IMG/VR virus record: IMGVR_UViG_3300020469_000008
Location: 1 to 64,000 of that record
Source: a virus
Taxonomy: Duplodnaviria; Caudoviricetes
DNA: 64,000 nucleotides
Direction: 5' to 3' (one strand)
Shown: piece after piece, positions 28,674-56,641 of the stretch
How positions within the stretch are numbered: the stretch's first letter is position 1
Layout of the letters: each line of letters begins with the position of its first letter
Translations under genes and position numbers: made by a program
Notes under the pieces: generated by a model
The model's input: only the letters and a program-made list of their open reading frames with translations
Databases searched by the model: none
Told to the model about the DNA's origin: nothing

Positions 28674-29273
28674 ATGAGTAATTTGACGAATTCTAAACTT
28701 CGTAGAATGATTATGCAAGAATTAGCAAAAATGGTGGGTGAGGACGCTTTAGTTTCACCTGATAGAAGAGATTCATACAGAGACACAGGTTATCGCCCGC
28801 AAACAATGGAACCACACAGTTTTACTTTAACAAAGTACGGTGACAATTACGACGATTTCGGCGGTGGTGAAGAAGAGACTTGTGAACAATGCGGTAAAAT
28901 GTCATATGATTGTGAATGTTTTGAATCAGGCTGTGGATCCACCACCTCGAGTAGTGTCACACTGCAAGAAGGTGATTGTGGTTGTGGATCGTCGTCTAAT
29001 GACGGTACAGATTATTCAATAGATACAATGGAAATGCTTGACAGTGTCTTAGGGGATATGATACATACTCACCCTGACAAGCACAGTCACAACAATTATA
29101 TGGCGAAACCTGCGCTATACAAAGTTGCAAAGTATGCACAAAAGCTTTTACATATGATACCAGACGGGTATGAATTAGATGATTGGCAACGACACAAAAT
29201 TGCGCAGATATCTGATGACATATCTGAGGTATATCATTCACTAGATTACGATTTTCATGACGACGAGTATTAA
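28674..29273 (+). CDS. Putative internal head (cargo) protein with shared N-terminal leader
   Basis: Starts MSNLTNSKLRRMIMQEL; Cys-rich middle; C-terminal helical module MAKPALYKVAKYAQKLLHMIPDGYELDDWQRHKI; AGGAG SD. Confidence 0.6.
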   Translation: MSNLTNSKLRRMIMQELAKMVGEDALVSPDRRDSYRDTGYRPQTMEPHSFTLTKYGDNYDDFGGGEEETCEQCGKMSYDCECFESGCGSTTSSSVTLQEGDCGCGSSSNDGTDYSIDTMEMLDSVLGDMIHTHPDKHSHNNYMAKPALYKVAKYAQKLLHMIPDGYELDDWQRHKIAQISDDISEVYHSLDYDFHDDEY

Positions 29274-30574
29274 TGAGGTCTATACAAGAATTATTTGATG
29301 AGACAAAACACGATATCGACAAAGGACACTTAGATAGGGTGTCTCGTAGATATCGTTACTTTGATAGTAATTGTTTTGATGACGTCCCTAAAATGCGGCA
29401 CCCAACTGAGCAAAGTAAGGCATTCACAAATGACATGAAAGAAGTCATAAGGTGTCACAATCATCCTAGTCTTTCCACAAAATTCTTGCGTGACAGTGAC
29501 GATTCAGTAGAAAAAATATTTAAAAGATACTGTAAAGAGAATGGTTATCATCTTATAGACTGGAAAAAATTAAAAGATATTCTTCGTGATGTCGACAGCA
29601 TTGTTTTAAAACTAAAATATAAAAATAATAGGCCTAGACCATTACATTATCTACGTGATTTAAGCGATGATGAACAACAAATAAAGTATAAAAAGTCGCC
29701 AAGTTTTCCAAGTGGTCACACCGCGATTGCATACTTTTTATGTGACGTCATATCAAACAGCATACCTGAAATCCAGCAGGATCTCCAAACTTTGGCCTCA
29801 TTGATAGGACAAACAAGAATTGAGAACGCTGTACATTTTCCAACAGACATAGACTATGGCAGGTTGGTGGGAGAAACTTTGGCAGATTTATTTTTACAGC
29901 AGTCAGGCACCCGTATTTACTCTGGTTTAAAAACAAAACACTACGCAGACTTTGCAAAGAAATTGTGTGACAAATCCAAACAAATTTATGTAGATGATTC
30001 AGAAAGTGCTGCTTATGATAAATATGCAGATGATTTAGCAGATTTTCTACACCGCACAAATGAAATAGAGTTTTATAATGTACCATACAATGAGTGTCTA
30101 GACGCAGCACGACATATAATGATGGGCTTTCCAAGCAGCTATATAACACAGAACGCATACATCCAGTCCCAGTTAGACGGTTTAACAATGTCTCACAAGT
30201 GTGGGGTAATAGATAACAACTTTAAAGTTGTTCGTATTCACGAATGCTTCTTGTCAAGTGTTCTAGAGAAAGGAACACCAGGCGAGTTTCGAAATTTTTC
30301 TCACGCTTCTCGAGCAGGTGTACAGTTTCCTGAACCTTGCAACTTGCACAATAAGCTACGTTTATGTCACGGATATAAAGATAAAGCTTGGTTAAGACAT
30401 TTATTGTATGAATATATTCATCCTTTCTGTGACGGGAACGGTCGTTCAGGGCGAATTATTCTTGCAAATGATTTAGACTACGATTTCTCAAAAATTAACC
30501 AATTGATAGGGCAGAACTATATACCTACAATTGTAAAGCAAATGGTTGGGCCTAAATTAGAAAAGCTGTTATAG
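29273..30574 (+). CDS. PAP2 (acid phosphatase/haloperoxidase superfamily) - Fic domain fusion
   Basis: PAP2 motifs KYKNNRPRP, SFPSGH, TRIENAVHFPTD; complete Fic motif HPFCDGNGRSGR at 30419-30454. Confidence 0.8.
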   Translation: MRSIQELFDETKHDIDKGHLDRVSRRYRYFDSNCFDDVPKMRHPTEQSKAFTNDMKEVIRCHNHPSLSTKFLRDSDDSVEKIFKRYCKENGYHLIDWKKLKDILRDVDSIVLKLKYKNNRPRPLHYLRDLSDDEQQIKYKKSPSFPSGHTAIAYFLCDVISNSIPEIQQDLQTLASLIGQTRIENAVHFPTDIDYGRLVGETLADLFLQQSGTRIYSGLKTKHYADFAKKLCDKSKQIYVDDSESAAYDKYADDLADFLHRTNEIEFYNVPYNECLDAARHIMMGFPSSYITQNAYIQSQLDGLTMSHKCGVIDNNFKVVRIHECFLSSVLEKGTPGEFRNFSHASRAGVQFPEPCNLHNKLRLCHGYKDKAWLRHLLYEYIHPFCDGNGRSGRIILANDLDYDFSKINQLIGQNYIPTIVKQMVGPKLEKLL

Positions 30575-30602
30575 TGTAATCCTTGTAATTGCATATTATA
30601 CT
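30574..30602 (+). promoter_or_regulatory. Early/middle-type promoter, GTGYAA-N17-TATA(A/C)T class, copy 1
   Basis: GTGTAA 30574-30579, 17-nt spacer, TATACT 30597-30602. Confidence 0.6.
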
Positions 30603-30621
30603 ATATTTGCAAGGAGGAAAT

Positions 30622-31080
30622 ATGCCACGAAGATTTAAAAATAACCAGTTAAGCCATGTCAAGGAAGCCTTAAACCAACAAAAAGCAGAGGAAGCAGAAG
30701 CAATTGCTGTTGAACAAGCTGAAACAGACGAAGAACAACAAGCACCTACATCTGTAGCAGATGTTAAAAAAGCTTTTAAAGAGTCTAGACAACCAGAAGA
30801 GGCTGTTCAAAGTGTCAAAAAACAAATGCGTAAGGTTCGTAAGCATTTAAAAAGACAAAGTGTAGGTCAGAAAAGAAAAGTAGCTTGGCAACATGAAGTT
30901 GGTGACTTAGTTCAAATACCAGTAAAAGCCAGTAGATTGAACGAAGAAGACTTTGGTATTATTGTGCAAATGACAGACCCAGACAAGTATAACGAAACAC
31001 ACATCCGCGACTCACAATCGCTTGTATTATCACCAGCAGGACGCAATTGGTATAGAACTAAAAACTTAAGAAAAGTGTAA
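30622..31080 (+). CDS. Hypothetical protein, charged N-terminus and C-terminal SH3/KOW-like barrel
   Basis: AAGGAGG SD places start at 30622 (MPRRFKNN); C-terminus EVGDLVQIP...FGIIVQ resembles KOW/SH3 patterns. Confidence 0.6.
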   Translation: MPRRFKNNQLSHVKEALNQQKAEEAEAIAVEQAETDEEQQAPTSVADVKKAFKESRQPEEAVQSVKKQMRKVRKHLKRQSVGQKRKVAWQHEVGDLVQIPVKASRLNEEDFGIIVQMTDPDKYNETHIRDSQSLVLSPAGRNWYRTKNLRKV

Positions 31081-31103
31081 CTGTAAAAACAATAAAATAT
31101 AAT
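31075..31103 (+). promoter_or_regulatory. Early/middle-type promoter, copy 2
   Basis: GTGTAA 31075-31080, 17-nt spacer, TATAAT 31098-31103. Confidence 0.65.
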
Positions 31104-31134
31104 AAAACCACAACCAAAACATCCAGGAGAAATA

Positions 31135-32196
31135 ATGGATATCAAAACATTCGTTCAAGTAATTTCAAAGCTCCCACCACAAATCGCAGTTCTTGCCAAA
31201 GGACCAACAGGTATTGGTAAATCACACATTGTTCACCAAGTTGGCGAACGATTAGATATGCAAGTTATTGACCGCCGTTTATCACAAATGACTGAAGGTG
31301 ATATTATTGGCTTACCAGAACTAGTTGATGGTGTTACACGCTTTGCACCAATTGATTGGTTTGTTCGTGCTTGTAATGAACCGGTTATCTTGTTCTTTGA
31401 TGAGTTAAACCGTGCTACTATTGAGGTTCAACAATGTGCTTTCCAAATTGTTCTTGATAGAGAACTTAATGGTCACAAGCTTCATCCAGAAACCCGTGTT
31501 TATGCTGCAGTTAATGAAGGTAGCGAGTATCAGGTCACTGAAATGGACCCGGCTCTATTACGTCGTTTCTTTGTTACAAGTTTGGAACCAACAGCTCAAG
31601 ACTGGTTAGACTGGGCTCGCAAAAGTAAAAAGATTGACCCACTCGTCATCACTTTCATTGAGAAATACCCGGCTCGATTGCGTCATGCAGGCCAAATGGA
31701 ACCAGGTAAGGTATACCCAAATCCTGCTTCTTGGGATCGATTGAATACAGCTCTAGAGTACGCTGGTATGAAACCGTCAAACTCTTGTGGCGATAGCTAC
31801 AACCCGTTGTTCTACTCAATGTGTACAGGTTTTATTGGTACAGAAACAACAATTGCATTTGTTGACTTTGTTAAGAACCATGAGTTTAAGTTTAGTGCCG
31901 AAGATGTTCTCAACGATTACGACAAAAACAAAGACATGATTAATGTTTTGACAACTGACAAGAAAAATGATTTATTGAGTATTATCGTTACTTATACAAC
32001 AACAGATAATGTTGAGGTAACGATTAAACAAGTAGAAAACGCTTGCGCATTCGTCAATACTTGCTCTGACGAAATGTTAGTTAATTTTATGAATATGATT
32101 ATGGAAACAAAGAACCTTCCTACAATTAGAAAATTTCACAAACTCTTAAGTAGTAAAGTTGTAGAAGCAGTTAATGCGGCAAACACAATAACTTAA
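31135..32196 (+). CDS. MoxR/CbbQ-type AAA+ ATPase
   Basis: Walker A GPTGIGKS, Walker B ILFFDELNRA, sensor-I AAVN, arginine finger DPALLRRF; AGGAG SD. Confidence 0.88.
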   Translation: MDIKTFVQVISKLPPQIAVLAKGPTGIGKSHIVHQVGERLDMQVIDRRLSQMTEGDIIGLPELVDGVTRFAPIDWFVRACNEPVILFFDELNRATIEVQQCAFQIVLDRELNGHKLHPETRVYAAVNEGSEYQVTEMDPALLRRFFVTSLEPTAQDWLDWARKSKKIDPLVITFIEKYPARLRHAGQMEPGKVYPNPASWDRLNTALEYAGMKPSNSCGDSYNPLFYSMCTGFIGTETTIAFVDFVKNHEFKFSAEDVLNDYDKNKDMINVLTTDKKNDLLSIIVTYTTTDNVEVTIKQVENACAFVNTCSDEMLVNFMNMIMETKNLPTIRKFHKLLSSKVVEAVNAANTIT

Positions 32197-32198
32197 TT

Positions 32199-32227
32199 GT
32201 GCAACCGCTAAAACTATGCTATATAAT
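32199..32227 (+). promoter_or_regulatory. Early/middle-type promoter, copy 3
   Basis: GTGCAA 32199-32204, 17-nt spacer, TATAAT 32222-32227. Confidence 0.65.
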
Positions 32228-32249
32228 ATAAACAACCACAGGAGGTTAT

Positions 32250-33578
32250 ATGAGTGAAGTATTGGAAAAAGTAGAAGAAGTTGAGTTAATGTCAAAAGAA
32301 AGATTTGACAAAATTATGTTAAAATTCTTAATTGACGAACCGTTCTTCTCCGACATCATGCGCCATATTAGAAAGGAAATGACAAATATTATTCCTACAG
32401 CAGGTGTTATGTGTCAAGATGACAATATTGTTATGTACTGGAATCCTAAGTTTGTTGCTAGCCTGACAGTTAAGAAGGTGTTTGGTTTACTTAAACACGA
32501 ATGTTATCACTTGATATATCAACACTGTACATCCAGAAAGCAAGACCCACACTTGATGTGGAATATCGCTACAGACTTGGCAATTAATTGCACATTACTT
32601 GAATCAGAACTACCTGACGGTGGTTTGGTACCAGGTAAACCCACTAAGCAGCCAGAAGATGTGTCACATTTACCAAAAGAGTTACTTGAGCAATCGCAAA
32701 AAATGTCAGATTTTATTGAGTCTTTACCTTCGCATAAATCATCTGAGTGGTACATGGAAACTATCATGAACAATGATGAAATGCAAGAGGCAATAAACGA
32801 CTGTATGGGACCCAAATCAATTATGGTTGGCAAACCTGGAGATGGCGATGGTGAAGGTCAAGCGGGAACATGTGCAGGTTTTGACTATCACTTCGACAAT
32901 GAAGACATGTCCGAGGGTGACAAGGCACTAATTGATGCAAAAGTCAAAGATATCATTGAAAAAGCAGCAAAGCGAGCAGATAGAACAAATAGCTGGGGTT
33001 CAGTAAGTTCAGATGCAAGAGGCCAGATTCGCTCAATGATGTCCAAATCAATTGACTGGAAATCAGTTCTTCAGTACTTTTGTGGTACAAAACAACGTGC
33101 TAATCGTTCACGTAGTTTTAGAAAGATTAATCGAAAGTACCCATATATTCACCCCGGTCGAAAGACTAGTCATACTTCTAACATTGTAATCTACATTGAC
33201 CAGTCTGGATCTGTAGGTGATGATGACTTAGAATTGTTCTTCAGTGCACTAAATGACTTGGCTAGTCGCGTAACCTTTACAATCTTTCACTTTGACACTT
33301 CAGTCGATGAAAATAGCAAGCATATTTGGCGAAAGCGCAAAAAGATTGATAAGGCTTACCGAACACGTGGTGGTGGAACTTGTTTTAACGCTGCTGAAGA
33401 CCACTTTCGAAAGGTAGCAGGTGAGTATGACGGTTATATTATTATGACTGATGGGTATGCACCTAAACCAAAAACTTGTATATCTAAAAGATGCTGGGTA
33501 TTATTACCAGGTATAAAACCATCATTTCAAATTGACAAAAGAGATACTGTTGTCTTGATGGAGCGAGATAAAAAATAG
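32250..33578 (+). CDS. Metallopeptidase-like + VWA domain protein (DUF2201-type), partner of AAA+ ATPase
   Basis: HEXXH (HECYH, 32496-32510), WNIATDLAIN motif, MIDAS DQSGS, RGGGT and IIMTDG motifs; AGGAGG SD. Confidence 0.85.
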   Translation: MSEVLEKVEEVELMSKERFDKIMLKFLIDEPFFSDIMRHIRKEMTNIIPTAGVMCQDDNIVMYWNPKFVASLTVKKVFGLLKHECYHLIYQHCTSRKQDPHLMWNIATDLAINCTLLESELPDGGLVPGKPTKQPEDVSHLPKELLEQSQKMSDFIESLPSHKSSEWYMETIMNNDEMQEAINDCMGPKSIMVGKPGDGDGEGQAGTCAGFDYHFDNEDMSEGDKALIDAKVKDIIEKAAKRADRTNSWGSVSSDARGQIRSMMSKSIDWKSVLQYFCGTKQRANRSRSFRKINRKYPYIHPGRKTSHTSNIVIYIDQSGSVGDDDLELFFSALNDLASRVTFTIFHFDTSVDENSKHIWRKRKKIDKAYRTRGGGTCFNAAEDHFRKVAGEYDGYIIMTDGYAPKPKTCISKRCWVLLPGIKPSFQIDKRDTVVLMERDKK

Positions 33579-33585
33579 GGGAAAT

Positions 33586-36961: not shown

Positions 36962-36962
36962 A

Positions 36963-37421
36963 ATGGCATTAAGTTTTGAAGAAGTAAATGTGTTAGGAAA
37001 TTTAATTAATGACACGTATGGAAAACCCTCAACACAAACGGGTTACAATTCAACCGATCAAGGGGGTAATCCGAGGTACAGTGGTTACTCATCTGCTGGT
37101 CCCGGCTCAGTTAACTCAGTAGCAACTAAAGCTAGTCTTCAGGGAGAAAACCTTTGTGTTACTTCACTTTGCATTGTTAACTTAGGCCCCCACGGTCATC
37201 AACATCAAGTAATACAACAAACTGAAAATGAGTTAAATCAGCACATTAATGCGTATATGAAAGAGCTGAAGAAAAATTTTAAAAAGAAAGAATACGCGGG
37301 TCGTGCTTTAAAAGCAAAAGAAGATAAAAATAAAAGAACAACTGACGTTCAAATGATTAATCATTATGCTGAAACACGTCAAGCCTATATTTATAGAAGA
37401 GCTTATTTCGAGATTAATTGA
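36963..37421 (+). CDS. Hypothetical protein directly upstream of terminase
   Basis: 152 aa ORF with AAGGAG SD; TGATG-coupled to terminase. Confidence 0.65.
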   Translation: MALSFEEVNVLGNLINDTYGKPSTQTGYNSTDQGGNPRYSGYSSAGPGSVNSVATKASLQGENLCVTSLCIVNLGPHGHQHQVIQQTENELNQHINAYMKELKKNFKKKEYAGRALKAKEDKNKRTTDVQMINHYAETRQAYIYRRAYFEIN

Positions 37422-39046
37422 TGGCGCGCCTGAGTAAACAAGCACAAGTAAAAGAAATAATAAGGTGTGGTAAAGATCCAAACTATTTCTTTAAAAATTA
37501 CTTGAAGATACAACATCCTGTTAGGGGTTTGATACCGTTTCAAATGTACCCCTTTCAGGAAGAGTGTGTTGAAGAATTTAACGACCACAGATTTAACATT
37601 ATACTTAAGTCACGTCAGTTAGGAATATCAACGCTCACTGCTGCTTACTCAGTTTGGATGGCAATATTTAAAAAAGAAAAGAATATTCTTATTATTGCAA
37701 CAAAACTTAAAGTTGCTCAGAACTTTATCATCAAAGTAAAGACTATGATTCGTTCTTTACCAAAATGGTTGCTACTTCCAGAGATTGTATCCAACAACAA
37801 GCAAGAGATAATGTTCTCGCACGGTTCACAAATTAAAGCAATTCCAACTTCAGATGATGCCGGACGATCTGAGGCATTGTCACTTCTCATTATAGATGAG
37901 GCTGCTTTTGTTAGAAACTTTGACACGATTTGGACAGGTATCTATCCCACAATCTCAACGGGTGGTCGGGTCGTAATTTTGTCAACACCCAATGGAGTTG
38001 GAGGTCAATATCACAAACTATATACAGAAGCTGAAGCTGGTGTTAATGAGTTTAATCCTATTAAGCTCATGTGGGATGTGCATCCAGAACGCGGTGAAGA
38101 GTGGTTTAGTCAAGTAACAGCAAACTTATCTAAAAGACAAATAGCACAAGAATATTTGTGTGACTTTGCTATCTCTGGAGAAACGTACTTAGATACGAAT
38201 ACATTAGAATGGATCAGCAAGATTGTCGAAGCTCCGAAAATGAGAGAAGGCCCAGATAACAACGTTTGGATATGGAAGCAACCATTAACAGAACATGAGT
38301 ACGTTATATCTGCTGATGTATCTCGAGGTGATGCAAAAGACTTTTCTACTTTCCATATTATTGACGTTAATGAATCAGAGGTTGTTGCTGAGTATAAAGG
38401 AAAAATTCGTCCTGACACTTTTGCCGAACTCATTAATACGTACGGAATGAAGTACAATAAGGCTTTAGTATGTCCAGAAAACAATAGTTACGGATATGCA
38501 ACAATATTAAAGTTGCAAGAATTAAAGTATCCTCGACTGTATTACCGACGTAGAAAAGGCGCGTATATCGGCAATTACGTTCCACAACAAACGCCAGATG
38601 TAGCCGGTTTTAACACAAACGGAAAAACACGTGGGACAGTTTTGGCAAAGTTAGAAGAAGTTTTAAGAAATAAACAACTCGCAGTATACTCTAGTAGGTT
38701 TTATGAGGAATTGAAAGTGTTTGCTGTAGGTTCAGACGGTCGTGCTTCAGCACGTCGCGGTTACAATGATGATTTAGTCATGAGTTTGGCAATTGGGACG
38801 TGGTTGTTTGATGCATCAGCTGACTACAGTAAAAACTCAAAAGCTTTAAACGATGCAATGTTAAAAGCAATGTCTCGGAATGCTACGCCTTACGGTGACA
38901 CGCCTGAAGCTGTGACAGCACCAATCAGTATTTTTGGTAGAGGTAGTGTTTCAAGTCAAAATAGAGATACAGGGCCTAGAAAGAGTGAGTTTACAAGTAA
39001 AGCTAGGGATAAAATTAACATAAAAGACCATAAATGGTTGTTTTAG
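37421..39046 (+). CDS. terL: Terminase large subunit, T4 gp17-like
   Basis: YLKIQHP; Walker A LKSRQLGIST; Walker B LLIIDEAAF; STPNG; nuclease ISADVSRG and DDLVMS. ATG at 37421 preferred over TTG at 37418. Confidence 0.93.
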   Translation: MARLSKQAQVKEIIRCGKDPNYFFKNYLKIQHPVRGLIPFQMYPFQEECVEEFNDHRFNIILKSRQLGISTLTAAYSVWMAIFKKEKNILIIATKLKVAQNFIIKVKTMIRSLPKWLLLPEIVSNNKQEIMFSHGSQIKAIPTSDDAGRSEALSLLIIDEAAFVRNFDTIWTGIYPTISTGGRVVILSTPNGVGGQYHKLYTEAEAGVNEFNPIKLMWDVHPERGEEWFSQVTANLSKRQIAQEYLCDFAISGETYLDTNTLEWISKIVEAPKMREGPDNNVWIWKQPLTEHEYVISADVSRGDAKDFSTFHIIDVNESEVVAEYKGKIRPDTFAELINTYGMKYNKALVCPENNSYGYATILKLQELKYPRLYYRRRKGAYIGNYVPQQTPDVAGFNTNGKTRGTVLAKLEEVLRNKQLAVYSSRFYEELKVFAVGSDGRASARRGYNDDLVMSLAIGTWLFDASADYSKNSKALNDAMLKAMSRNATPYGDTPEAVTAPISIFGRGSVSSQNRDTGPRKSEFTSKARDKINIKDHKWLF

Positions 39047-39054
39047 GATGAAAA

Positions 39055-41022
39055 ATGGCAAATAATGACAGAAATTTATTTAAGCGCTTAACAAGGCTTT
39101 TTAGAAGTGGGCCAGTTGTCAAGCGTAATGTTTTAAGAAATGCAGACAAAAACTACACATCAACAGCGTTTGACCAGTTTAGAAAAAATCAGTCGCAAGT
39201 GTATAGTAATGCAATGTCTGCATATGGTACGTATGACAGAATGGCACGTTACTCTGATTTTTCAGAAATGGAATACACACCTGAGATTGCTAGTGCACTG
39301 GACATATACTCAGAAGAAGCAGTTTCTGCAGATGAAGCGGGTAAAACCTTACACATTTATTCAGATAATACAAAGATTAGACAAATACTTACTGAGCTAT
39401 TTTATGATACACTTAATGTTGAATTTAATATGTCTTCATGGGTGAGAAATCTAGTAAAATACGGTGATTGCTTTCTGTTTAATGATGTTCATCCTAAACA
39501 CGGTGTAATTAATTGCATGCCTTTGCCTATATCAGAAGTAGAAAGAGAAGAAGGTTTTGATCCTAACGATCCTATGGCAGTTCGTTTTAGATGGGTAACA
39601 CAGGGTAATCAGGTATTAGAAAACTGGCAAGTATCACATATGAGGCTTTTAGGAAACGATGCATTTTTACCTTACGGTTCTTCTATTTTGGAACCAGCAA
39701 GAAGAATATGGCGCCAGATGATTTTATTAGAAGACGCAATGATGGTGCACAGAATTGTTAGAGCACCTGATCGCCGTGTTTTTTACATTGATGTTGGTAA
39801 TGTACCTCCCGAAGAGGTTGCAAATTATATGGAACAAGCACAGTCATCGCTTAAACGTACTTCTATTGTTGACAAGAACAACGGTCGGGTTGATTTACGA
39901 TATAACCCACTTTCTGTTGATGAGGACTATTTTATTCCTGTTCGAGGTGGAGAAAGTGGGACAAAAATTGATGTTGTGGGTGGCCAGACAATTCAAGGTG
40001 AAACACAAGACGTAGAATATATTCAAAAGAAATTATTTGCTGCTCTTAAAATACCGAAAGCTTACTTGGGTTATGACGAGGGTTTAGGCGCCAAAGCAAC
40101 ACTATCACAAGAAGATATACGATTTAGTAGAACAATTGCCAGAATTCAAAGAACAATCTTATCAGAGATGAACAAGCTTGCAATTGTTCATCTATATTGT
40201 AACGGATTTAGCGATGAAGATCTACTAGACTTTAAATTAATGTTGTCAAATCCGTCGACAATTGCACAACAACAAAAATTAGAACTGTATAAGTCTAGAT
40301 TTGATGCTGCTGGTGCTGCCTTAGGTGTTTCTGGTGTTGTTGATAGAATTTGGGTGCAAAAAAACATACTAAGGTTTACAGACGAAGAAATCAAAGCAAT
40401 TCAAAGCGGTCTTCGTCAGGACAAAGTCTCTGACTTAGAAATTGAAGCCACACAGATAACAGCTCCTGAAGGGCCGGAAAATCCAGCAGCTGGTGCACCT
40501 CAATTTGACGGAGGAAACGTTGAACTTGGTGGTGGTGGTATTGATTTAGGTGCACTTTCTGAACAGCAGTCAATAGAGGATGATGAATTTCCAATTCGTG
40601 TTCAAAAATTAATTGAGCTCAATGTTGGTGCTTTAGAAGAAGAAGAAGATGATGATGACGATTTAAACAAAAGTAGCACTGATAATTCAAGCTCTTTAAG
40701 GACAGGTGTTAATCCGTCCTTAAAGACTAGACGCAGAGATGATCCTGTTGACGCCGGAATGAGCAAGTTAAATTATGATCTAAAAGCATCGATTAAAGCA
40801 CCAAAGGCACCTTCTGCTAAAGATTTGCTTGAGTCAGATGATGATTTTAATATTGAAGATTATCTAGACGAACAAATAGTTGTTAATGCAACAATGAATA
40901 ACACATTAAAGTCGACATTACAGCGTTTTGATAATACTTATGGTACGCAACAACGCAACGTTAAGAATTCCATTATAATTTCTGAGAACAATTCTTCAGG
41001 AGAGGACACAGATGAAACATAA
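39055..41022 (+). CDS. Portal protein, T4 gp20-like, with long acidic C-terminal extension
   Basis: MEYTPEIASALDIY, LLEDAMMVHRIVRAPDRRVFYIDVGN, EDYFIPVRG, DVEYIQKKLFAALKIP; position after terL. Confidence 0.92.
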   Translation: MANNDRNLFKRLTRLFRSGPVVKRNVLRNADKNYTSTAFDQFRKNQSQVYSNAMSAYGTYDRMARYSDFSEMEYTPEIASALDIYSEEAVSADEAGKTLHIYSDNTKIRQILTELFYDTLNVEFNMSSWVRNLVKYGDCFLFNDVHPKHGVINCMPLPISEVEREEGFDPNDPMAVRFRWVTQGNQVLENWQVSHMRLLGNDAFLPYGSSILEPARRIWRQMILLEDAMMVHRIVRAPDRRVFYIDVGNVPPEEVANYMEQAQSSLKRTSIVDKNNGRVDLRYNPLSVDEDYFIPVRGGESGTKIDVVGGQTIQGETQDVEYIQKKLFAALKIPKAYLGYDEGLGAKATLSQEDIRFSRTIARIQRTILSEMNKLAIVHLYCNGFSDEDLLDFKLMLSNPSTIAQQQKLELYKSRFDAAGAALGVSGVVDRIWVQKNILRFTDEEIKAIQSGLRQDKVSDLEIEATQITAPEGPENPAAGAPQFDGGNVELGGGGIDLGALSEQQSIEDDEFPIRVQKLIELNVGALEEEEDDDDDLNKSSTDNSSSLRTGVNPSLKTRRRDDPVDAGMSKLNYDLKASIKAPKAPSAKDLLESDDDFNIEDYLDEQIVVNATMNNTLKSTLQRFDNTYGTQQRNVKNSIIISENNSSGEDTDET

Positions 41023-41852: not shown

Positions 41853-42455
41853 ATGTCTGCAGAATTAAATGTTTTAAGAGAATGGACACCTATTTCTTGT
41901 TCAAAGGAAATGTTAAAGGAATCCCGCGAGCAATATGGAAAAATAATGTTGACGGGAATCATCCAAAAAGCAAACACCTTAAATCAAAATGGGCGAGTAT
42001 ATCCTAAGCCGATTCTAGAAAGAGAAATAATGAATTACCAAAAGATGATTCGTGAAAATAGAGCGCTGGGAGAATGCGATCATCCTGATTCGTCTGTAGT
42101 TGAATTAAAAAATGTATCACATATTGTGAGAGAAGCTTACATGCAAGGTGATGATGTCTATGGTAAGATAGAGATACTAGACACTCCTAGCGGTAAAATT
42201 ATACAGTCTTTAATTGAAAGTGGCATTACGCTTGGTATTTCATCACGTGGCGTAGGCTCAACTGTATCACAGGGTGGTAATCAGGTTGTACAAGACGATT
42301 TCCAGTTAATTTGTTTTGATATGGTGTCTGAACCGTCAACTCCCGGTGCATTTATGCTAAAGGAGCACAAAGTTTTAAGAAAAGATTTAGATAAAATTTT
42401 TAACCAAACAGATAAAATCGATAGAATGTTTAATGAGATTCTGAGGTGGGAATGA
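41853..42455 (+). CDS. Prohead maturation protease, T4 gp21-like
   Basis: NQNGRVYP, ALGECDHP, NVSH, GISSRGVGS, FDMVSEPS motifs; AAGGAG SD gives start at 41853. Confidence 0.93.
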   Translation: MSAELNVLREWTPISCSKEMLKESREQYGKIMLTGIIQKANTLNQNGRVYPKPILEREIMNYQKMIRENRALGECDHPDSSVVELKNVSHIVREAYMQGDDVYGKIEILDTPSGKIIQSLIESGITLGISSRGVGSTVSQGGNQVVQDDFQLICFDMVSEPSTPGAFMLKEHKVLRKDLDKIFNQTDKIDRMFNEILRWE

Positions 42456-44337: not shown

Positions 44338-44379
44338 TAATCAGCTAAATAATTAAATGTAGAGCAAGAGGTTTATAAA

Positions 44380-47847: not shown

Positions 47848-47876
47848 TCCAAACACCTTCTGGTGAATTTAACAAG

Positions 47877-47906
47877 AGGCGTCTCCTTCGGGAGGCGTCT
47901 TTTTTT
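47877..47906 (+). terminator. Rho-independent terminator after major capsid gene
   Basis: AGGCGTCTCC-TTCG-GGAGGCGTCT stem (two G-U pairs) with cUUCGg loop, followed by T-run. Confidence 0.9.
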
Positions 47907-47952
47907 ATGTAAACAGCAAAACTATAAGATATTTATAAAAGTACAAGAGGTA

Positions 47953-48270: not shown

Positions 48271-48354
48271 AATTATTTTACATTACTTCTTGTTGGTATA
48301 GTGTATTACGTGCATATCGCACAATTCACACATTACATACACACAGGAGGGAAT

Positions 48355-48567: not shown

Positions 48568-48616
48568 GAAAAATCATTTCTATCTAAATAATTAGTAATG
48601 ATATAATGGAGTTATT

Positions 48617-49075: not shown

Positions 49076-49134
49076 TCATTAATAATTAATAACAAGCTTT
49101 GCAAATAGAGTATAGTTACTAATAGGAGGTAATT

Positions 49135-50125: not shown

Positions 50126-50150
50126 AGATTTCTCCTTTAACTTTGATAAG

Positions 50151-50174
50151 TGACAGTATAATTATACATTGTCA
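50151..50174. promoter_or_regulatory. Near-perfect palindrome between divergent genes (overlapping -10 boxes / operator candidate)
   Basis: TGACA-GTATAATTATAC-AT-TGTCA; TATAAT on both strands. Confidence 0.5.
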
Positions 50175-50193
50175 TACAAAAAATACGGAGGTT

Positions 50194-50397
50194 ATGATGC
50201 CAATAAAAAAGACAGCAGCAGAAGAATGTTGCGCAAAATGTGAAAAAGATGTTGCAGCACTCAGAAAAGAGATTGCTGCGCTTAGAAAAGAGCTTGCAAA
50301 GAAACCTGCAGGTGGTGCAGACCCACGAGTAGATGCGATTGTGCAGTTTTTAAAATCTAATTTTAACCAAAAAGCAGCAAAAGCAGGAATTAAATAA
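50194..50397 (+). CDS. Small coiled-coil protein
   Basis: GGAGG SD gives start at 50194 or 50197; heptad repeat VAALRKEIAALRKELAKK preceded by CCAKC. Confidence 0.6.
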   Translation: MMPIKKTAAEECCAKCEKDVAALRKEIAALRKELAKKPAGGADPRVDAIVQFLKSNFNQKAAKAGIK

Positions 50398-50410
50398 TAT
50401 ATATAAGCAG

Positions 50411-50466
50411 GCCCGGCACACAGCATAAAGGCGACCCCACCGTCGTGTCGGAATCTTGTGGACAAG
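50411..50466 (+). promoter_or_regulatory. GC-rich structured 5' leader candidate (unidentified cis-regulatory RNA)
   Basis: CCGGCAC/GTGTCGG stem with inner GAC/GTC hairpin and CTTG-TGGA-CAAG hairpin; much more GC-rich than surrounding intergenic DNA. Confidence 0.4.
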
Positions 50467-50490
50467 TATCTCAAAATTAAGGAGGAAATT

Positions 50491-51000
50491 ATGCCAAAGG
50501 TAACATATACAAATTCGAAAGGATTGTTTCAAGAAACAGGTACAGCGGACGTTAATCTGTCCGGACAAGGAGCATTGTTCGGTCAGCTTTTAAAAATCAA
50601 GACTGTCACAGCCACAACAGTGTTGCGCGATACAGACTCAGGAAAAATTGTTTTAGTTAATCCAGCTGGGACCACACTACTTACATTACCAAGCGTGGCA
50701 AATACAGGATGGACTATCACAATAATTCTTACAGAAGACGCAGCTGGATCTGATCAAGGTATGGGACAAAAAGTTAATATTGACTTAGGTTCAGGCGCTA
50801 ACCTAGCCAATATCGGACAAATACACGAAGTCGATGGGGCCGCCGGCGATTACGCAGTAGCCAATGATGACTTTATTAATTTCTCAGCTAATGCTTCACC
50901 TGGTGACAGAGTCGATATATTTTCAGACGGATCTAGATGGCACATTTACGGTCTAGTAAAGGATGCTACAGAGGCTGTATTCAACACAGCAGCTGGATAA
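50491..51000 (+). CDS. Putative capsid decoration/fibre protein, paralog 1
   Basis: AAGGAGG SD gives start at 50491; 169 aa, beta-rich (DSGKIVLVNP...LTLP...GDRVDIF). Confidence 0.55.
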   Translation: MPKVTYTNSKGLFQETGTADVNLSGQGALFGQLLKIKTVTATTVLRDTDSGKIVLVNPAGTTLLTLPSVANTGWTITIILTEDAAGSDQGMGQKVNIDLGSGANLANIGQIHEVDGAAGDYAVANDDFINFSANASPGDRVDIFSDGSRWHIYGLVKDATEAVFNTAAG

Positions 51001-51012
51001 TAGGAGATTAAC

Positions 51013-51522
51013 ATGCCAAAAGTAACGTATACAAGTTCGAAAGGATTATTTCAAGAAAGCGGAACTGGTGAAGTAAATTTATCAGGTCAGGGTGTTTTGT
51101 TCGGTCAATTAGCAAAAACTGAAGCAATTACTGCTACTACAGCGTTGGCGTCAACTGATACCGGTAAAATATTTTTTGTCGATCCAACAGCAGCAACATT
51201 AATTACTCTACCTGCGCTAGCCTCTTCTTTAAAAGGTTGGTATTGTCGATTTGTGCTCACGGAGAATGAGACAGGAAACGCACAAGCAATGGATGCAAAA
51301 GTTAATATTGACTTGGGCGCTGGAACAGCAAACGTCGGTCAACTTCATGAACTAGACGGCGGGGCTGGAGATTATTTGGTCTCCGGAGACGATTTTGTAA
51401 CATTCTCTGCCAATGCATCAGCAGGAGACAGAGTTGATATCTTTACAGACGGTAATAGATATTATGTTTACGGTTTTGTCAAAGAAATTGCTGAATGTAA
51501 TTTTCATACCGCAGCTAGATAA
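51013..51522 (+). CDS. Putative capsid decoration/fibre protein, paralog 2
   Basis: AGGAG SD; 169 aa; clearly homologous to paralog 1 over its full length. Confidence 0.55.
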   Translation: MPKVTYTSSKGLFQESGTGEVNLSGQGVLFGQLAKTEAITATTALASTDTGKIFFVDPTAATLITLPALASSLKGWYCRFVLTENETGNAQAMDAKVNIDLGAGTANVGQLHELDGGAGDYLVSGDDFVTFSANASAGDRVDIFTDGNRYYVYGFVKEIAECNFHTAAR

Positions 51523-51542
51523 TATCTACATCCTCTATAACT

Positions 51543-51568
51543 AAAGGCACCATTTCGGTGCCTTTTTT
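51543..51568 (+). terminator. Rho-independent terminator
   Basis: AAAGGCACC-ATTTC-GGTGCCTTT followed by T-run. Confidence 0.88.
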
Positions 51569-51644
51569 ATTTTGTAACAAAGCAAAACTAGTGAGACCTT
51601 TGAGCTGTAATTGACCTACTTATACACATCTCTCGGAGATCGAT

Positions 51645-52061
51645 ATGAAGTTAGTTTTTGCTTTGTTTTGTTTAGTCGCAGGACATCTATTAGCGTGGTT
51701 GCAATTAAACGGTCCAATCTTCAATGACTGGTGGAAAGATAACATTTGGATAAGTGCACTATGTATTTCTCCAATGATTTTCTTTTTTAGCATGACATAC
51801 TGGAGTATCACTTACGAGTGGTTGCAAGCTGTGTGGTCAGTTAAATTTATCGCTTATGGCGTAAATATTGTAGTTTTTTCAATTTGTGCCTACTATTTTC
51901 TTGGTGAATCGTTATTTACTATTAGAAACGTTGTTAGTATCATATTTGCAACGTTAATGATTTTATCACAAGCATATTTACCAAAGACGAGTATATTCGG
52001 TGCCGGACAAGAAACCCCAGAGAATGTCGCTGTTAGCGATGGTGTTGATCATTCTGATTAG
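51645..52061 (+). CDS. Four-helix membrane protein, SMR/EamA (DMT)-like
   Basis: Four hydrophobic segments; FLGES motif after helix 3; GGAG SD. Confidence 0.6.
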   Translation: MKLVFALFCLVAGHLLAWLQLNGPIFNDWWKDNIWISALCISPMIFFFSMTYWSITYEWLQAVWSVKFIAYGVNIVVFSICAYYFLGESLFTIRNVVSIIFATLMILSQAYLPKTSIFGAGQETPENVAVSDGVDHSD

Positions 52062-52166
52062 CATTTGGTTAACTTATGAGTTTGTAAGGTATGATGTTCA
52101 ATGTTTCTTGAGAAAATACAAAATAAATAAGATAATTAGTAGTGTCTATAATAAAGGAGTAGAACT

Positions 52167-52463
52167 ATGTCATCAATTAATAGAGATAAAATCAGAAAAT
52201 TAATTTTAAAAGAGTTTAAAATGATGGGAATGGCTGATATGGGCCACGGCGGGATGAAGCCAATGGGAATGGTGCACACTGTTGATCACGGCCATGAAGC
52301 TAGTCACGGTCATTCTGTGATGAAATCAGCTAAAAGTTGTGTATCGCGCGAAGATTGCTGTGCTGCAATTATGTGTTTGGTTGAATGTTGCGAATGCCCA
52401 ATCACAAAGCAAGTAATTATGGAATGCTGCCAAGAAATCATGTCTGGTCAACACGATCATTAA
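52167..52463 (+). CDS. Leader-tagged Cys/His/Met-rich small protein (putative metal-binding cargo)
   Basis: AAGGAG SD; MSSINRDKIRKLILKEF; 9 Cys and 8 His in 98 aa. Confidence 0.65.
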   Translation: MSSINRDKIRKLILKEFKMMGMADMGHGGMKPMGMVHTVDHGHEASHGHSVMKSAKSCVSREDCCAAIMCLVECCECPITKQVIMECCQEIMSGQHDH

Positions 52464-53839
52464 TGAAAATTACTCGACGCCAGCTCCAAATGTTAATACA
52501 GGAGGAGATACGACAGGTGAAACCGGGTTGTTATAAAGTATACCCGAAGAAACCAAAGCGTGGCAAGAAGCGTCGTAAAGCATTATCTAAAAAGTGCAAG
52601 ACTAAGAAAGCAGCAAAGAAGCATTTGGCAGCTATTGAAATTAGTAAATCGATGCGTGAGGATGACAATCCTTGTTGGGATGGTCACAGGCCAGGTGCTC
52701 AAACCGGACAAAAAACAAAAATCGGAAAGAGTGGAAATCGCGTTGCAAATTGTGAAAAGATAAAAGAATCAATTCTTTTAGAGTCCAAATATGAACAACT
52801 CATATCACAATTACCTGGGTTGTCGTTAGTTGTTACTGAAGATATGCCGCGCGGGTTTGCATTAGATTTGCAATACGATGATTACATGATCGCATCTGCA
52901 GAGATAGTAGCTCTTTCTGTAAACCCAGGTGAACCATGTATTCCTGAGACAATGTCAGTTAGTACTATTTATACCTCGCCAGATTATCAGAATTTAGGGA
53001 TTGGTGAACTTTTACTTGATCTGATATTCTACTATGCTAGCACGTTAGACGGAGGAAAAGGACGAGGTATAACAACAGATTTGCGAGGTGGTAACACACC
53101 AATTATTAATTACATAATTCAAAGAGCATTACAAGATCCTGCATACTACAAGCAGACCACCAAAGCCGGTAATGACGAGATGGACTTTTTTGAAAAAACT
53201 AGCGACCCGGATGATGATTGCTACTCCGAATTCCTTGACGGTAAAGGTATATACTGGTTTATTAGTCAAGGTATGTCCGAAGAAGAAGCATTCGAAAAAG
53301 TTGAAATGACAGATGGAGATTTAGGCACGACTAGCTCTTGGCGAAAGAGAGGTATTGAATCTATAAAGCCTATATATGACATGCTCACACAAAGACAGGG
53401 TGCTGATGTACTTTATAGACCAGTCATTAGAAGTCGACAGTTCCAAGATGCTTATCGTAATACACCTACTCCTGAAGAAATACGTTCATTTCAAAGAGGT
53501 AAGAAACTAAAAGAACGCAAAGAACCAAGAAAAGGCACCGGTAAAAAACCAAAAGGTAGTACTAGGCGATTATATACCGATGAGAATCCCAAGGATACTG
53601 TCTCTGTTAAGTTTCGAACTAAGTCTGATATACAGGACACTTTATCAAAAAAAAGCTTTAAGAGTAAAGAACATAAGCGGCAGTCGCAGATAATTAATCT
53701 CATACATCAGCGCGTTCGTGTTGCTTACAAAAATGCAAAAGATCCTGCAACGAAAAAACGCTTAAAGCTTGCGTATGATTATGCTAAACAGAGAAAAGAA
53801 GCCAGTAAGCTTAAAACAAAAAAAATGAGGAAGAAATGA
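52463..53839 (+). CDS. Leader-tagged multi-module protein with GNAT-like acetyltransferase domain
   Basis: TAATG overlap gives start at 52463 (MKITRRQLQMLIQEEI); GNAT motif A IYTSPDYQNLGIGELLL; K/R-rich terminal modules. Confidence 0.65.
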   Translation: MKITRRQLQMLIQEEIRQVKPGCYKVYPKKPKRGKKRRKALSKKCKTKKAAKKHLAAIEISKSMREDDNPCWDGHRPGAQTGQKTKIGKSGNRVANCEKIKESILLESKYEQLISQLPGLSLVVTEDMPRGFALDLQYDDYMIASAEIVALSVNPGEPCIPETMSVSTIYTSPDYQNLGIGELLLDLIFYYASTLDGGKGRGITTDLRGGNTPIINYIIQRALQDPAYYKQTTKAGNDEMDFFEKTSDPDDDCYSEFLDGKGIYWFISQGMSEEEAFEKVEMTDGDLGTTSSWRKRGIESIKPIYDMLTQRQGADVLYRPVIRSRQFQDAYRNTPTPEEIRSFQRGKKLKERKEPRKGTGKKPKGSTRRLYTDENPKDTVSVKFRTKSDIQDTLSKKSFKSKEHKRQSQIINLIHQRVRVAYKNAKDPATKKRLKLAYDYAKQRKEASKLKTKKMRKK

Positions 53840-54342
53840 AAATATCAAAAAAATACCTGAGAAGATTGATAAAAGAATCGATTAACGAGTCCAACTTACC
53901 TCCGGGAACAAGCCAATCAGATATCGATGATTATTATTATGATGGCGATGATGAGACTAGACAGACAGGATTATCAATTGAAATGGCTTTTTATGATCCT
54001 TCTCATCCTCTTTTCAGAGGCTCACCGACAGGTATGTACGGCGATATTGAATTTTCTGATTACGGTGCTGACAGTGCTGATGAGCTATCTGAAGAGCAAT
54101 ATCGAAAAATAGAAGCTGACGTTATGGCTATCGTAAATCATCCAGCATCTAGACTTGAAGCCAACGAAATATATGAAGCTTCGCAGGAATTTATCGATGC
54201 AATGCAAGGAAACAGTAGTAATACAGGCACGTACTTTTATCCTGTGTTCGAAGAGGATGATAGTTACGATGGCCCTGATGATTTTGATTATGATCCTTAT
54301 GAAACTGCAGGTAATTTTGGACCAGATATGTTTTCAAGGTAA
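53836..54342 (+). CDS. Leader-tagged, highly acidic Asp/Tyr-rich protein
   Basis: ATGA overlap; MKISKKYLRRLIKESINE, then a D/E/Y-rich body. Confidence 0.65.
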   Translation: MKISKKYLRRLIKESINESNLPPGTSQSDIDDYYYDGDDETRQTGLSIEMAFYDPSHPLFRGSPTGMYGDIEFSDYGADSADELSEEQYRKIEADVMAIVNHPASRLEANEIYEASQEFIDAMQGNSSNTGTYFYPVFEEDDSYDGPDDFDYDPYETAGNFGPDMFSR

Positions 54343-54351
54343 GCTTAAAAT

Positions 54352-55152
54352 ATGAAAGTTACACGACGTAAACTTAAAATGATTATTGAGTCTTTCCTTC
54401 ATGAAGAAAAGGAAAAACTTGAGAAAGATCACGGCAAAAAATATGTTTGCCCAAGCTGTGGTCATGTTCATGATTCTAAAGAAGATATTAATGCCCTCTG
54501 GTCAGGAAAAAAGTGTGTAAAGTGCGGTACAAAATTTGACCTAAAGACCGGTAAAGTTCCATCAGGTAAAGGCAAGGGGCAAAAGTGGGGAATTCATGCT
54601 AATACTAAAAGTGAGTCAAAATTAAGAATGCTTCGCGAAAAAAGACATCGTAGAAAAAGAAAACTAAGAGAAACTGCGAAAGAAACTGAATGTCCTACAG
54701 CGACAACAGACATTAGTGTTAACACAGCTAATCGCGACCGAGCTCGCAAACTTGACTGGATTATATACGGCCCTTTAAATGTAGAATTTCCGGGAAAGTA
54801 TTGGGAAAAGATATCAAAAAAGTGGGGAACAGACGTTGAAGCAGCAAAGAAGTCAAACTGTGGTGTTTGTGTTGCTTTTGATCGATCCCCGAAGATGGTT
54901 GATGAGTGCATACCTGCAATAACGTCTGAACCTGTTGCAGATGAGTTCGGTGTTTTAGGGTATTGCTGGATGCACCACTTTAAGTGTCACAGTGCAAGAA
55001 CATGTAACACTTGGGCAGCTGGTGGTCCGATTAAGACTGATGAAGCGTCAGGCGAATGGTTTGAACGTAATAAAGACGGTGCGTTAAAGAAAGATCCAAT
55101 CGATCCTAATATTTATAGGGACGATACTAATACTTCACAGGAGACAGAATGA
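54352..55152 (+). CDS. Leader-tagged protein with zinc ribbon and Cys-rich (HiPIP-like) module
   Basis: MKVTRRKLKMIIESFLHE; CPSC...CVKC; NCGVCVAF...GYCWMHHFKCHSARTCNTW. Confidence 0.65.
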   Translation: MKVTRRKLKMIIESFLHEEKEKLEKDHGKKYVCPSCGHVHDSKEDINALWSGKKCVKCGTKFDLKTGKVPSGKGKGQKWGIHANTKSESKLRMLREKRHRRKRKLRETAKETECPTATTDISVNTANRDRARKLDWIIYGPLNVEFPGKYWEKISKKWGTDVEAAKKSNCGVCVAFDRSPKMVDECIPAITSEPVADEFGVLGYCWMHHFKCHSARTCNTWAAGGPIKTDEASGEWFERNKDGALKKDPIDPNIYRDDTNTSQETE

Positions 55153-56237
55153 AAATATCAAGAAGAAGAATTAGACAACTTATAAGAGAATCCCGCGAAG
55201 AACATATCCAGGGAATTAGAAGTAAACTAGTTAGATTAAATGACGAATTAGAAAACAGACAAGAGGCACTTGATGATTTAAACTATCAATCACAAAGTAT
55301 GATGGATTTTTATTCAGATGACCCATATGCTGGTAGAGATGAGATGATGGCCGGTGACCCGATTAGAGATCAAATATATGACATCGAAAACAAGATAACA
55401 TTGTTGCAAAATCAACTAGATGCTTTAGAAGCTGCTAATGGTGGCCCGGTAGGTCAACTACCAAGGGGTAGAATATTCGAAGAAGTTTCTGATCTGACTG
55501 ATGAAAAACAAAAAGAAATAGATGACGCAGTTGCTGATTATTTAGCCAAAGAAGGCGGAGCAGCATCTGAAGAGGGAACCGAAGATATTGTTCGTGACAA
55601 GGTTGATGGCATTGATGCAAAATCGTATCTTTCAAACAATGAAAGATTTAAGCAGCTAACAGTAAATAACGACCCAATGGACTATTATGATACAACTTTA
55701 ACTGAAGCTAGAGTCTTTATTAGAGAGAAATTAGAAAAAATTGGTTTTTACAAGAAGTACGGTTACGGATTAGATGATATACCAAACAAAACAAAAGCGC
55801 ATGACGATATCATAGGGCACACGTGACTGACCCACGTTAAGCGGAAGGATTCTGCTTTAAATGAAGTTGGTGAAGTTTTATGGCACAGCCTTGATGAAAG
55901 TGGTCACATATCTGTTTATGACGTCGAATGGTCAGACGGTACAATTGAAAGAGATATCCCAGCAATTTTATTAGAAAAAGTTAAAGATAGTAATGCTGTC
56001 GACGAGGTTCACGAGGCACACGGTGTAGACGGACATAGACTAGATTCTGCTATCGATGAGAGAAAGTACAAGAAAAAGAAAAAAACAAAGAAACGTAAAA
56101 AGAAAAAGCATAGTTTGTACCCATATGTGTTTGGGTTTGGCTATCACCACGATGCTGAAAATTATGATTATGATATCGGTGGTGATTATGGAGATTTTGG
56201 AGGCGGCTTCGGTGACGGAGGCGGTGGTGGAGAATGA
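55149..56237 (+). CDS. Leader-tagged multi-module protein interrupted by one in-frame TGA (55824-55826): readthrough, nonsense mutation or sequence error
   Basis: MKISRRRIRQLIRESREE. After the TGA the same frame stays open for 136 codons (LTHVKRKDSALNEVGEVLWHSLDESG...GGGGGE) and ends in an ATGA overlap with the next gene; no in-frame ATG or GTG start in the downstream part. Confidence 0.65.
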
Positions 56238-56641
56238 AAATAGATAAAGATAGATTACGTAGAATTATAAGTGAAAGTATTGATGAAAATATGGGCACTG
56301 CGATGAAAATTAAAACAGATTTACTTTCAACTTATGATCGTTCGTATGTTTCACAAGCATATGAGCTGTGTGATGCATTAGGACTTGATTTTGCACAAAT
56401 GGTGAGAGAAATGTTAAGTCAAAAGATTGATAGTATAGATTTTCAGAATCACGTTCATGAATGGGTTAACGAGTTACTAGCAATTTTTCATACTGGTAAG
56501 GAAAACGACTTTTACATTGAAGATGAAAAATTCGAATCAGATGTTCAAATGGATTTTGCATTTAAAACTATCGCTGATATAACTAAAAATCTTGAAGATT
56601 ATTATGTCAATTTATTTGTAGCGATAGGTCAAGGTCGATAA
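56234..56641 (+). CDS. Putative internal head (cargo) protein with shared leader
   Basis: ATGA overlap; MKIDKDRLRRIISESIDE. Confidence 0.65.
   Translation: MKIDKDRLRRIISESIDENMGTAMKIKTDLLSTYDRSYVSQAYELCDALGLDFAQMVREMLSQKIDSIDFQNHVHEWVNELLAIFHTGKENDFYIEDEKFESDVQMDFAFKTIADITKNLEDYYVNLFVAIGQGR

Follow-up and report, generated by a model that had tools for sequence, protein, structure and literature searches.

A basic N-terminal leader shared by unrelated proteins of marine jumbo phages with T4-type head genes, a candidate capsid-targeting propeptide

The DNA analyzed here comprises 64,000 nucleotides (hereafter the window) and forms the first 64 kb of a 202,054-bp contig of linear class (G000; IMG/VR virus record IMGVR_UViG_3300020469_000008), which has 36.6% G+C, about 263 called genes, and a completeness of ~70% as estimated by CheckV. 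The window carries a T4-type head module in which genes for the large terminase, the portal protein, a gp21-family prohead serine protease, a probable scaffold, and a major capsid protein of the T4 gp23 type are accompanied by several small unannotated genes. Behind the capsid gene, and at a few other places in the window, lie genes whose otherwise unrelated products begin with the same basic peptide of 14 residues (Table 1). This peptide, referred to as the leader, has the consensus MKITRRQLRKLIxE and can be written as the pattern M-K-[IL]-[TSD]-[RK]-[RK]-Q-L-[RK]-[RKQ]-[LI]-I-x-E. A preliminary description of the same DNA had interpreted the leader as a signal for loading proteins into the phage head, and all 11 N-termini that it quoted are found in the sequence where it had placed them.

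Table 1. Genes of the head module and genes with a leader or leader-like N-terminus in the window; a slash in an N-terminus marks a presumed cut after Glu, and A1 and PSSM are the leader profile and position matrix described in the text.
Feature	Position	Strand	N-terminus	Evidence and remarks
Loose leader gene, 199 aa	28674-29273	+	MSNLTNSKLRRMIMQE/L	Regular-expression match; missed by A1; directly 3' of the DNA primase gene (phrog_47)
Large terminase gene	37421-39046			T4-type head module
Portal protein	39055-41022	+		phrog_213, 3.4e-74
gp21-family prohead serine protease (Peptidase S77)	41853-42455	+		phrog_207, 1.7e-53; PF03420 in all homologues; Pfam 4.7e-28
Conserved head-core protein, 176 aa	42452-42982	+	MNSKSKTALKNIVKE/CLIE/ILAE	Leader-like N-terminus; just 3' of the protease gene
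Small basic coiled-coil head-module protein, 70 aa	43027-43239	+	...AAIQRIIVE/E	Core spacing of the leader
Probable scaffold, 490 aa	44380-45852	+	EEAIADA	Assigned by position and by an N-terminus resembling T4 gp22 QLIAEA; ATAATTA at 44349-44355
Major capsid protein, T4 gp23 type, 650 aa	45895-47847	+		phrog_138, 2.6e-75; tblastn matches to T4-like capsid genes
Leader gene, 104 aa	47956-48270	+	MKTTRKQLQKLILE/A	A1 E 4.8e-10; PSSM 36 bits at ATG; first gene after the major capsid gene and the terminator
Leader gene, 152 aa	48617-49075	+	MRLDRNRLRKLILQE/M	PSSM and A1; ATAATTA at 48588-48594
Weak leader gene, 98 aa	52167-52463	+	MSSINRDKIRKLILKE/F	A1 E 0.003; ATAATTA at 52132-52138; homologue in G007
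Leader gene, 458 aa	52463-53839	+	MKITRRQLQMLIQE/E	A1 E 2.3e-12; Lys-rich tails around a possible GNAT acetyltransferase core
Leader gene, 168 aa	53836-54342	+	MKISKKYLRRLIKE/S	PSSM and A1; very acidic body, isoelectric point 4.05
Leader gene, 266 aa	54352-55152	+	MKVTRRKLKMIIE/S	A1 E 4.4e-9; Glu at position 13; Cys-x2-Cys pairs
Leader gene, 225 aa	55149-55826	+	MKISRRRIRQLIRE/S	PSSM and A1
Leader gene, 135 aa	56234-56641	+	MKIDKDRLRRIISE/S	PSSM and A1

Two tools were used to detect the leader: a position-specific scoring matrix (PSSM) derived from 17 clear cases, with which all six frames of the entire contig were scanned, and a profile hidden Markov model (A1) built from the first 30 residues of 23 strong leader N-termini. 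All 24 PSSM matches of at least 22 bits in the six-frame scan fall exactly on an ATG or GTG start codon, and leave-one-out scores range from 22 to 43 bits. At a threshold of at least 20 bits, 22 matches were obtained in the called proteins, compared with none in 50 residue shuffles. The A1 profile matches 23 starts in the contig with E-values of 9e-13 to 3e-8, which are partly circular because the profile was built from those same N-termini. Seven of these starts lie in the window (47956, 48617, 52463, 53836, 54352, 55149, and 56234; E 2e-12 to 3e-8), and the other 16 strong leader genes are located within 87-185 kb, including an array of 12 genes at 147.8-157.6 kb. About a dozen looser variants were recognized by eye, four of them in the window (28674, 42452, 43027, and 52167) and the others at 103511, 114638, 123670, 129014, 146839, 164277, 174633, and 185147. 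The earlier count of about ten leader proteins is thus sound for the window, with seven strong and four weaker cases, but understates the contig, in which 23 strong and about 12 looser copies account for ~9-13% of the genes.

What these genes share is confined to the peptide. All six Leu codons are in use at both Leu8 and Leu11, three codons occur at Ile12, and the 45 nt upstream of leader genes are without conservation between genes. Because the codons vary and the upstream DNA is unrelated, selection acts on the leader peptide, as had been proposed from the diverged codons, and the leader is a portable N-terminal module selected at the peptide level. Among 141 N-terminal copies from metagenomes, positions 1-12 carry 2.3-4.9 bits of information and Glu14 carries 3.1 bits, after which the value drops to 1.2 bits at position 15 (occupied by Glu, Ala, or Ser) and further to 0.6 and about 0.2 bits. 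Such a sharp edge of conservation is as expected of a cut site that ends a disposable tag, and Glu14 is accordingly marked as the presumed cut. Position 4 is occupied by Thr, Ser, Asp, or Asn, which are the usual helix-capping residues. In an AlphaFold2 model of the protein encoded at 155292 (32 homologues), residues 5-16 form a separate helix of low confidence, followed by an unstructured stretch (residues 17-43) and a confidently predicted all-helical domain; in the model, the leader is thus a free amphipathic helix joined to the body by a flexible linker. Literature searches with leader strings retrieved no paper containing its sequence, and a tblastn search of the cultured-phage collection with a 22-residue leader gave no match, the query probably being too short or filtered.

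The proteins behind the leader have little in common. When the first 22 residues are removed, 28 leader proteins show no mutual BLASTP match at E < 0.01, which bears out their description as otherwise unrelated, and the bodies range from 70 to 913 aa in length and are unlike in composition and predicted fold. Pfam and PHROG searches assigned no significant family to the leader proteins, the protein of the first leader gene (47956) among them, except for the product of the loose-leader gene at 146839; a GNAT signal in 52463 is weak (Pfam E 0.004), and atlas feature matches of this protein to viral GNAT clusters (score 0.83) serve as a lead only. At Pfam E ≤ 1e-5, a family was found for 1 of 35 leader proteins, a cell-wall enzyme, compared with 63 families among 119 size-matched leaderless proteins, many of these families being replication or metabolic ones (thymidylate synthase, RecA, ligase, kinases). 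In Pfam, only sporadic EF-hand, NUDIX, and PG_binding matches were obtained for the 150 top-ranking leader proteins from metagenomes; the modeled cargo domain of 155292 has no fold match at E ≤ 0.001 in BFVD or the PDB, and an atlas search with the 913-aa leader protein returned nothing informative. Characterizing the cargo as effectors, as the preliminary description did, is therefore unsupported, with one clear domain (YkuD L,D-transpeptidase) and one weak GNAT signal at hand.

The gene with the clear domain (contig positions 146839-147825; L003:2839-3825) stands at the head of the 12-gene leader array, has the loose leader MEISRLQLSNLIYE, and encodes a YkuD_2 L,D-transpeptidase domain (7e-32); from its sequence, the product is possibly a cell-wall enzyme carried in the virion.

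The leader is not restricted to this contig. A search of 1.84 billion representative proteins with A1 recovered 1063 clusters at E ≤ 0.001, with the consensus MKITKRQLRRIIKE, and a check of the ten top-scoring clusters placed them in metagenome collections, Tara Oceans samples among these. With a degenerate DNA pattern, more than 120 stretches were matched in IMG/VR contigs that reach 293 kb, and a stretch contained at most seven leader starts. Five relatives of 242-293 kb, whose capsid proteins are 63-66% identical, contain 14-26 leader genes each, and the 293-kb genome G001, which has terminal repeats and is 100% complete, carries 26. The S77 protease is present in all five leader-bearing genomes tested. 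The leader is hence a lineage trait of marine jumbo phages with T4-type head genes. The nearest capsid genes that tblastn found in cultured or deposited phages are distant ones, namely those of Microcystis phage Mel-JY01 (34%), Flavobacterium phage immuto, the 484-kb uncultured phage LR756508, and Rhodothermus phage RM378. The A1 profile finds nothing in T4, the cyanophages P-HM2 and S-SSM4, RsoM2USA, LR756511, or RM378; Mel-JY01 and immuto give one partial match each (E ~0.01), neither beginning at the first profile position.

In LR756508.1 (484 kb), more than 30 small genes between 143 and 222 kb (L013-L016) carry a diverged leader, e.g., MKLTERKLRKIVKEE, with Glu in place of Arg at position 5. 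These genes flank the portal-to-capsid module on both sides, and an S77 domain lies in an open frame of 576 aa. Another peculiarity among the relatives is a tandem pair of major capsid genes with identical first 32 residues in G001 (176269-180150; L149) and G005 (139110-142962), the gene being single in G000, G002, G003, and G004.

A comparison with the relative G007, whose capsid protein is 74% identical to that of G000 and whose three neighboring structural proteins are 73-90% identical, illustrates how variable the cargo is. In G007, the interval between the capsid and structural genes holds six leader genes without a homologue anywhere in G000, and what the two contigs have in common there is limited to the GNAT-like protein and fragments of two further ones; the G007 homologue of 52463 is 49% identical and has a different N-terminus. 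Leader cargo therefore turns over fast and differs between close relatives. Many of the best metagenomic matches (P0001-P0150) are open reading frames (ORFs) with a second or third internal leader, an excess that is partly a ranking effect because the scores of the copies add up. One such ORF (L017:5589-6299) consists of a leader, 83 residues, a further leader, and 125 residues, with no stop codon, and among its cluster mates the second half occurs alone as a gene, with leader variants. Of 127 internal copies, 86 are preceded by Met, 24 by Val or Ile, and 17 by another residue. Internal copies together with separate second halves indicate that leader-plus-body modules have been fused and split in evolution. 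The view of the leader as portable and of the cargo as swappable thus finds agreement in the unrelated bodies, in the different cargo of close relatives, and in the internal copies of fused ORFs.

The same motif is also found on conserved proteins of the head module. Homologues of the S77 protease begin at Met10 of the 41853 ORF, and in the resulting N-terminus, MSAELNVLRE/W, the residues VLRE align with LLIE of T4 gp21. The presence of a gp21-like protease, asserted in the preliminary description, is supported by family assignment (PF03420, phrog_207) and by location in the head module. The G001 homologue of the 42452 protein (38% identity, E 7e-24) begins with MAKISKSMLKGIVKE, a plain leader, and the QRIIVEE of 43027 has LRRLVLQE as its G001 counterpart. 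Since 42452, 43027, their G001 homologues, and the protease all carry the motif, the N-terminal motif of the variable proteins is common to conserved prohead-core genes. No match was obtained in a family search with the probable scaffold.

The closest known counterpart of the leader is the capsid-targeting sequence (CTS) of phage T4. The T4 internal proteins and Alt carry a short N-terminal CTS, which binds the prohead core and is removed by gp21 cutting after L/I-x-Glu (PMC9026906, PMC7411985, PMC3012670), and in this 10-residue tag targeting depends on residues 4 and 7 and processing on residues 8 and 10 (PMC9026906; PMC7411985). Both IPII and IPIII begin with MKTYQEFIAE followed by Ala (read from NC_000866), and the spacing Y4-x-x-F7-I8-x-E10 equals that of L8-x-x-L11-I12-x-E14 in the leader. 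With Asp in place of the Glu at the T4 cut, cleavage is prevented whereas targeting persists. Ile, Leu, or Val at position 12 is combined with Glu at position 14 in 134 of the 141 N-terminal metagenomic copies, which corresponds, by sequence only, to the gp21 motif; the terminal Glu to which the preliminary description drew attention is thus in keeping with the specificity of gp21 for L/I-x-E (PMC9026906). Like the CTS of IPI, IPII, IPIII, and Alt, the leader starts with MK, has Thr near the start or just before the helix, and is often followed by Ala, Ser, or Glu after its own Glu. The likeness extends to the tagging of unrelated proteins, the presence of a gp21-family protease, and cargo genes that are scattered and variable (PMC9026906; PMC3012670). 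Differences are equally evident, as the leader has 14 residues instead of 10, is strongly basic, shows no detectable sequence homology to the CTS, occurs on ~25-35 genes per genome rather than four as well as in more than 1000 metagenomic clusters, and is repeated internally within single ORFs.

Propeptides of T4 head proteins offer a second comparison. Those of gp22 (MLKEQLIAE/A), gp24 (MAKINELLRE/S), gp21 (MNEPQLLIE/T), and gp67 contain two hydrophobic residues, any residue, and Glu within the first 9-10 residues, and the corresponding element lies within the first 10-18 residues here (VLRE in the protease, IVKE in 42452, and IIVE in 43027). Their bearers in T4 are conserved core and shell proteins with a structural role, unlike the variable set of leader cargo. 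The heads of the giant phages phiKZ, 201phi2-1, and SPN3US contain about 50 proteins; a diverged homologue of gp21 cuts propeptides off after Glu, and a role of these propeptides in prohead targeting has been proposed. Propeptides of the phiKZ/SPN3US type have a length of about 100 residues or more, with 111-130 in SPN3US, and are cut at S/A/G-x-Glu (PMC7411985, PMC9026906). By contrast, the leader is short and near-identical on all proteins, has Ile, Leu, or Val at position 12, and accompanies a capsid gene of the T4 gp23 type, and it does not fall into the phiKZ type. We know of no leader sequence common to the propeptides of that type.

A further signal, shared by leader genes with scaffold and sheath genes, lies in the upstream DNA. 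The heptamer ATAATTA occurs 11-70 nt upstream of the scaffold gene, of both sheath-like genes, and of 6 of the 13 leader genes that have an intergenic gap of their own, compared with 10 of 105 other genes (Fisher p = 0.002); it is also found before the weak leader gene 52167. It is assumed here to be a late promoter. A different, sigma-70-like promoter element, in which AAAGTGTAAC is followed after ~15 nt by (G)TATACTA or TATAAT and then by ACACAACCAAAGGAG, heads more than 15 small genes at the contig's right end (186-201 kb of G000; L007) and a few replication genes (window positions 30572-30620 and 31073-31134), and was found on none of the leader genes. This element probably represents an early promoter class with a conserved leader and ribosome-binding site.

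Taken together, the leader is best explained as a cleaved capsid-targeting propeptide of the T4 CTS type that is put to genome-wide use, a reading to which we assign a probability of roughly 0.6. By analogy with T4, the leader helix would dock its protein onto the scaffolding core during prohead building, the S77 protease would then cut after Glu14 (Glu13 or Glu15 in variants), and the leader would exit the head. The mature proteins would remain among the DNA, and at least some of them would be ejected with it into the host, again as in T4, while cleavage at a second, internal leader would split the product of an ORF into two pieces of cargo. The general principle is already known from T4; what differs here is the length and charge of the leader and, above all, the scale of its use and the multi-leader ORFs. 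Accordingly, the observation made in the preliminary description is confirmed, and its interpretation as capsid cargo loading is partly supported by the sequence comparisons and the T4 analogy.

Several points weigh against this reading. A hydrophobic residue, any residue, and Glu constitute a motif of low information, and the link to the T4 CTS is a common pattern rather than demonstrable homology because A1 finds nothing in T4 or T4-like cyanophages. A megablast search with the head module against cultured and deposited phages returned nothing, and no cultured relative was found. Mature leader-protein bodies are mostly acidic, with a median isoelectric point of 4.9 compared with 5.8 for the genome, whereas T4 IPII and IPIII are basic. 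The late-promoter role of ATAATTA, as noted, is an assumption. At least 30 cargo species per head is many, although phiKZ-like heads contain about 50 proteins (PMC7411985). Lastly, leader genes are not generally adjacent to head genes, the one at 28674 lying beside the primase gene. Arrays stand beside head genes in G000 and G002, and not in G001, G003, G004, and G005, where they may be as far as 100 kb or more from the capsid gene, so that the enrichment near head genes anticipated in the preliminary description is not general. Clustering near head genes was dropped as evidence because it is absent from these four genomes, and is neutral in itself because T4 internal-protein genes are also scattered.

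The same scattering, with leader genes among replication and metabolic genes and the arrays of relatives far from head genes, would suit a different function, in which the leader is not a loading signal and acts as an uncleaved docking helix for another partner, which might be a chaperone, a hub protein of the phage, nucleic acid, or a virion part outside the head. Being basic, amphipathic, and flexibly linked, the helix suits this function as well. A complex prediction for the protease (alignment A4, T4 gp21 left out) and the leader (A5) scored 0.02 against a mark of 0.32, which gives no verdict and favors neither reading. Docking of this kind is nevertheless unlikely, as it leaves unexplained the near-invariant Glu with its conservation cliff, the occurrence of the motif on conserved head-core proteins and at the N-terminus of the protease, and the agreement in spacing with the functional residues of the T4 CTS. 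A further alternative draws on a gene of the contig itself: a ClpP gene (PF00574, E 2.8e-25; contig positions 86840-87442, L001:2840-3442) lies directly upstream of the leader gene at 87473, and ClpP is encoded by each of the five leader-bearing genomes tested, LR756508 among them. If the leader were an N-terminal degradation tag by which phage ClpP, with a host unfoldase, removes proteins at a set time, it would be unexpected on conserved head-core proteins, and the internal copies would be useless as N-degrons; ClpP also occurs in two of five genomes without the leader (Mel-JY01 and LR756511), which leaves this proposal weakened and, in our estimation, very improbable.

The tandem arrays of small genes raise the question of whether the leader is simply the conserved N-terminus, kept for folding or expression, of an expanded paralogous family whose remainder has diverged, without being a sorting signal. 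Some subfamilies are indeed alike beyond the leader, 147834 and 148403 sharing LREFK.TG. Set against this are bodies that are unlike in length, composition, and predicted fold and show no BLASTP similarity, as well as single bodies that come with different leader variants or stand second in fused ORFs; the varied codons exclude a cause at the level of DNA or mRNA, and in the 155292 model the leader lies outside the folded domain. Common descent of this kind is quite unlikely as the explanation. A recognition sequence for a modifying enzyme, analogous to those of ribosomally synthesized and post-translationally modified peptides, is highly improbable. A radical S-adenosylmethionine maturase was considered and rejected because the enzyme is absent, PF04055 being found in none of G000, the complete G001 (26 leader genes), G003, and G004, and no other conserved enzyme was seen beside the leader arrays.

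A few additional features were observed in the region that holds the leader genes. A strong terminator-like hairpin at 47877-47907, in which GGCGTCTCC, the loop TTCG, and GGAGGCGTC are followed by seven T residues, separates the major capsid gene, which it directly follows, from the first leader gene. The leader region also contains two 169-aa paralogues in tandem (MPKVTYT.SKGLFQE...; 50491-51000 and 51013-51522) that carry no leader themselves, and G007 has one shorter copy. The leader gene at 55149 ends with the TGA at 55824-55826, and its frame stays open for a further 136 codons, to 56237, encoding a Lys-rich run and a Gly-rich tail and ending where the next leader gene begins (ATGA at 56234). 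The TGA may be a sequencing error or may be read through or recoded.

If the leader works as the T4 CTS does, a sequence profile would pick out, from metagenomes alone, the head-carried and probably injected proteins of widespread marine jumbo phages. A more far-reaching proposal, tentative and on balance doubtful, is that the leader serves as an address label listing the whole packaged and injected protein set of an abundant, uncultured lineage of marine jumbo phages, comprising more than 1000 families, nearly all of unknown fold and function, that turn over between close relatives, and that ORFs with two or three leaders are polyproteins from which the head protease releases separate cargoes within the prohead. 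Should the capsid-targeting explanation be true, these proteins would be the first phage products to meet host defenses, like IPI and Alt of T4, and would otherwise be invisible, having no homologues. Moreover, the leader could become a tool for loading foreign proteins into the capsids of this lineage. With ~10% of the genes and a content that changes from one close relative to the next, the set suggests an arms-race repertoire far above that of any T4-like phage studied.

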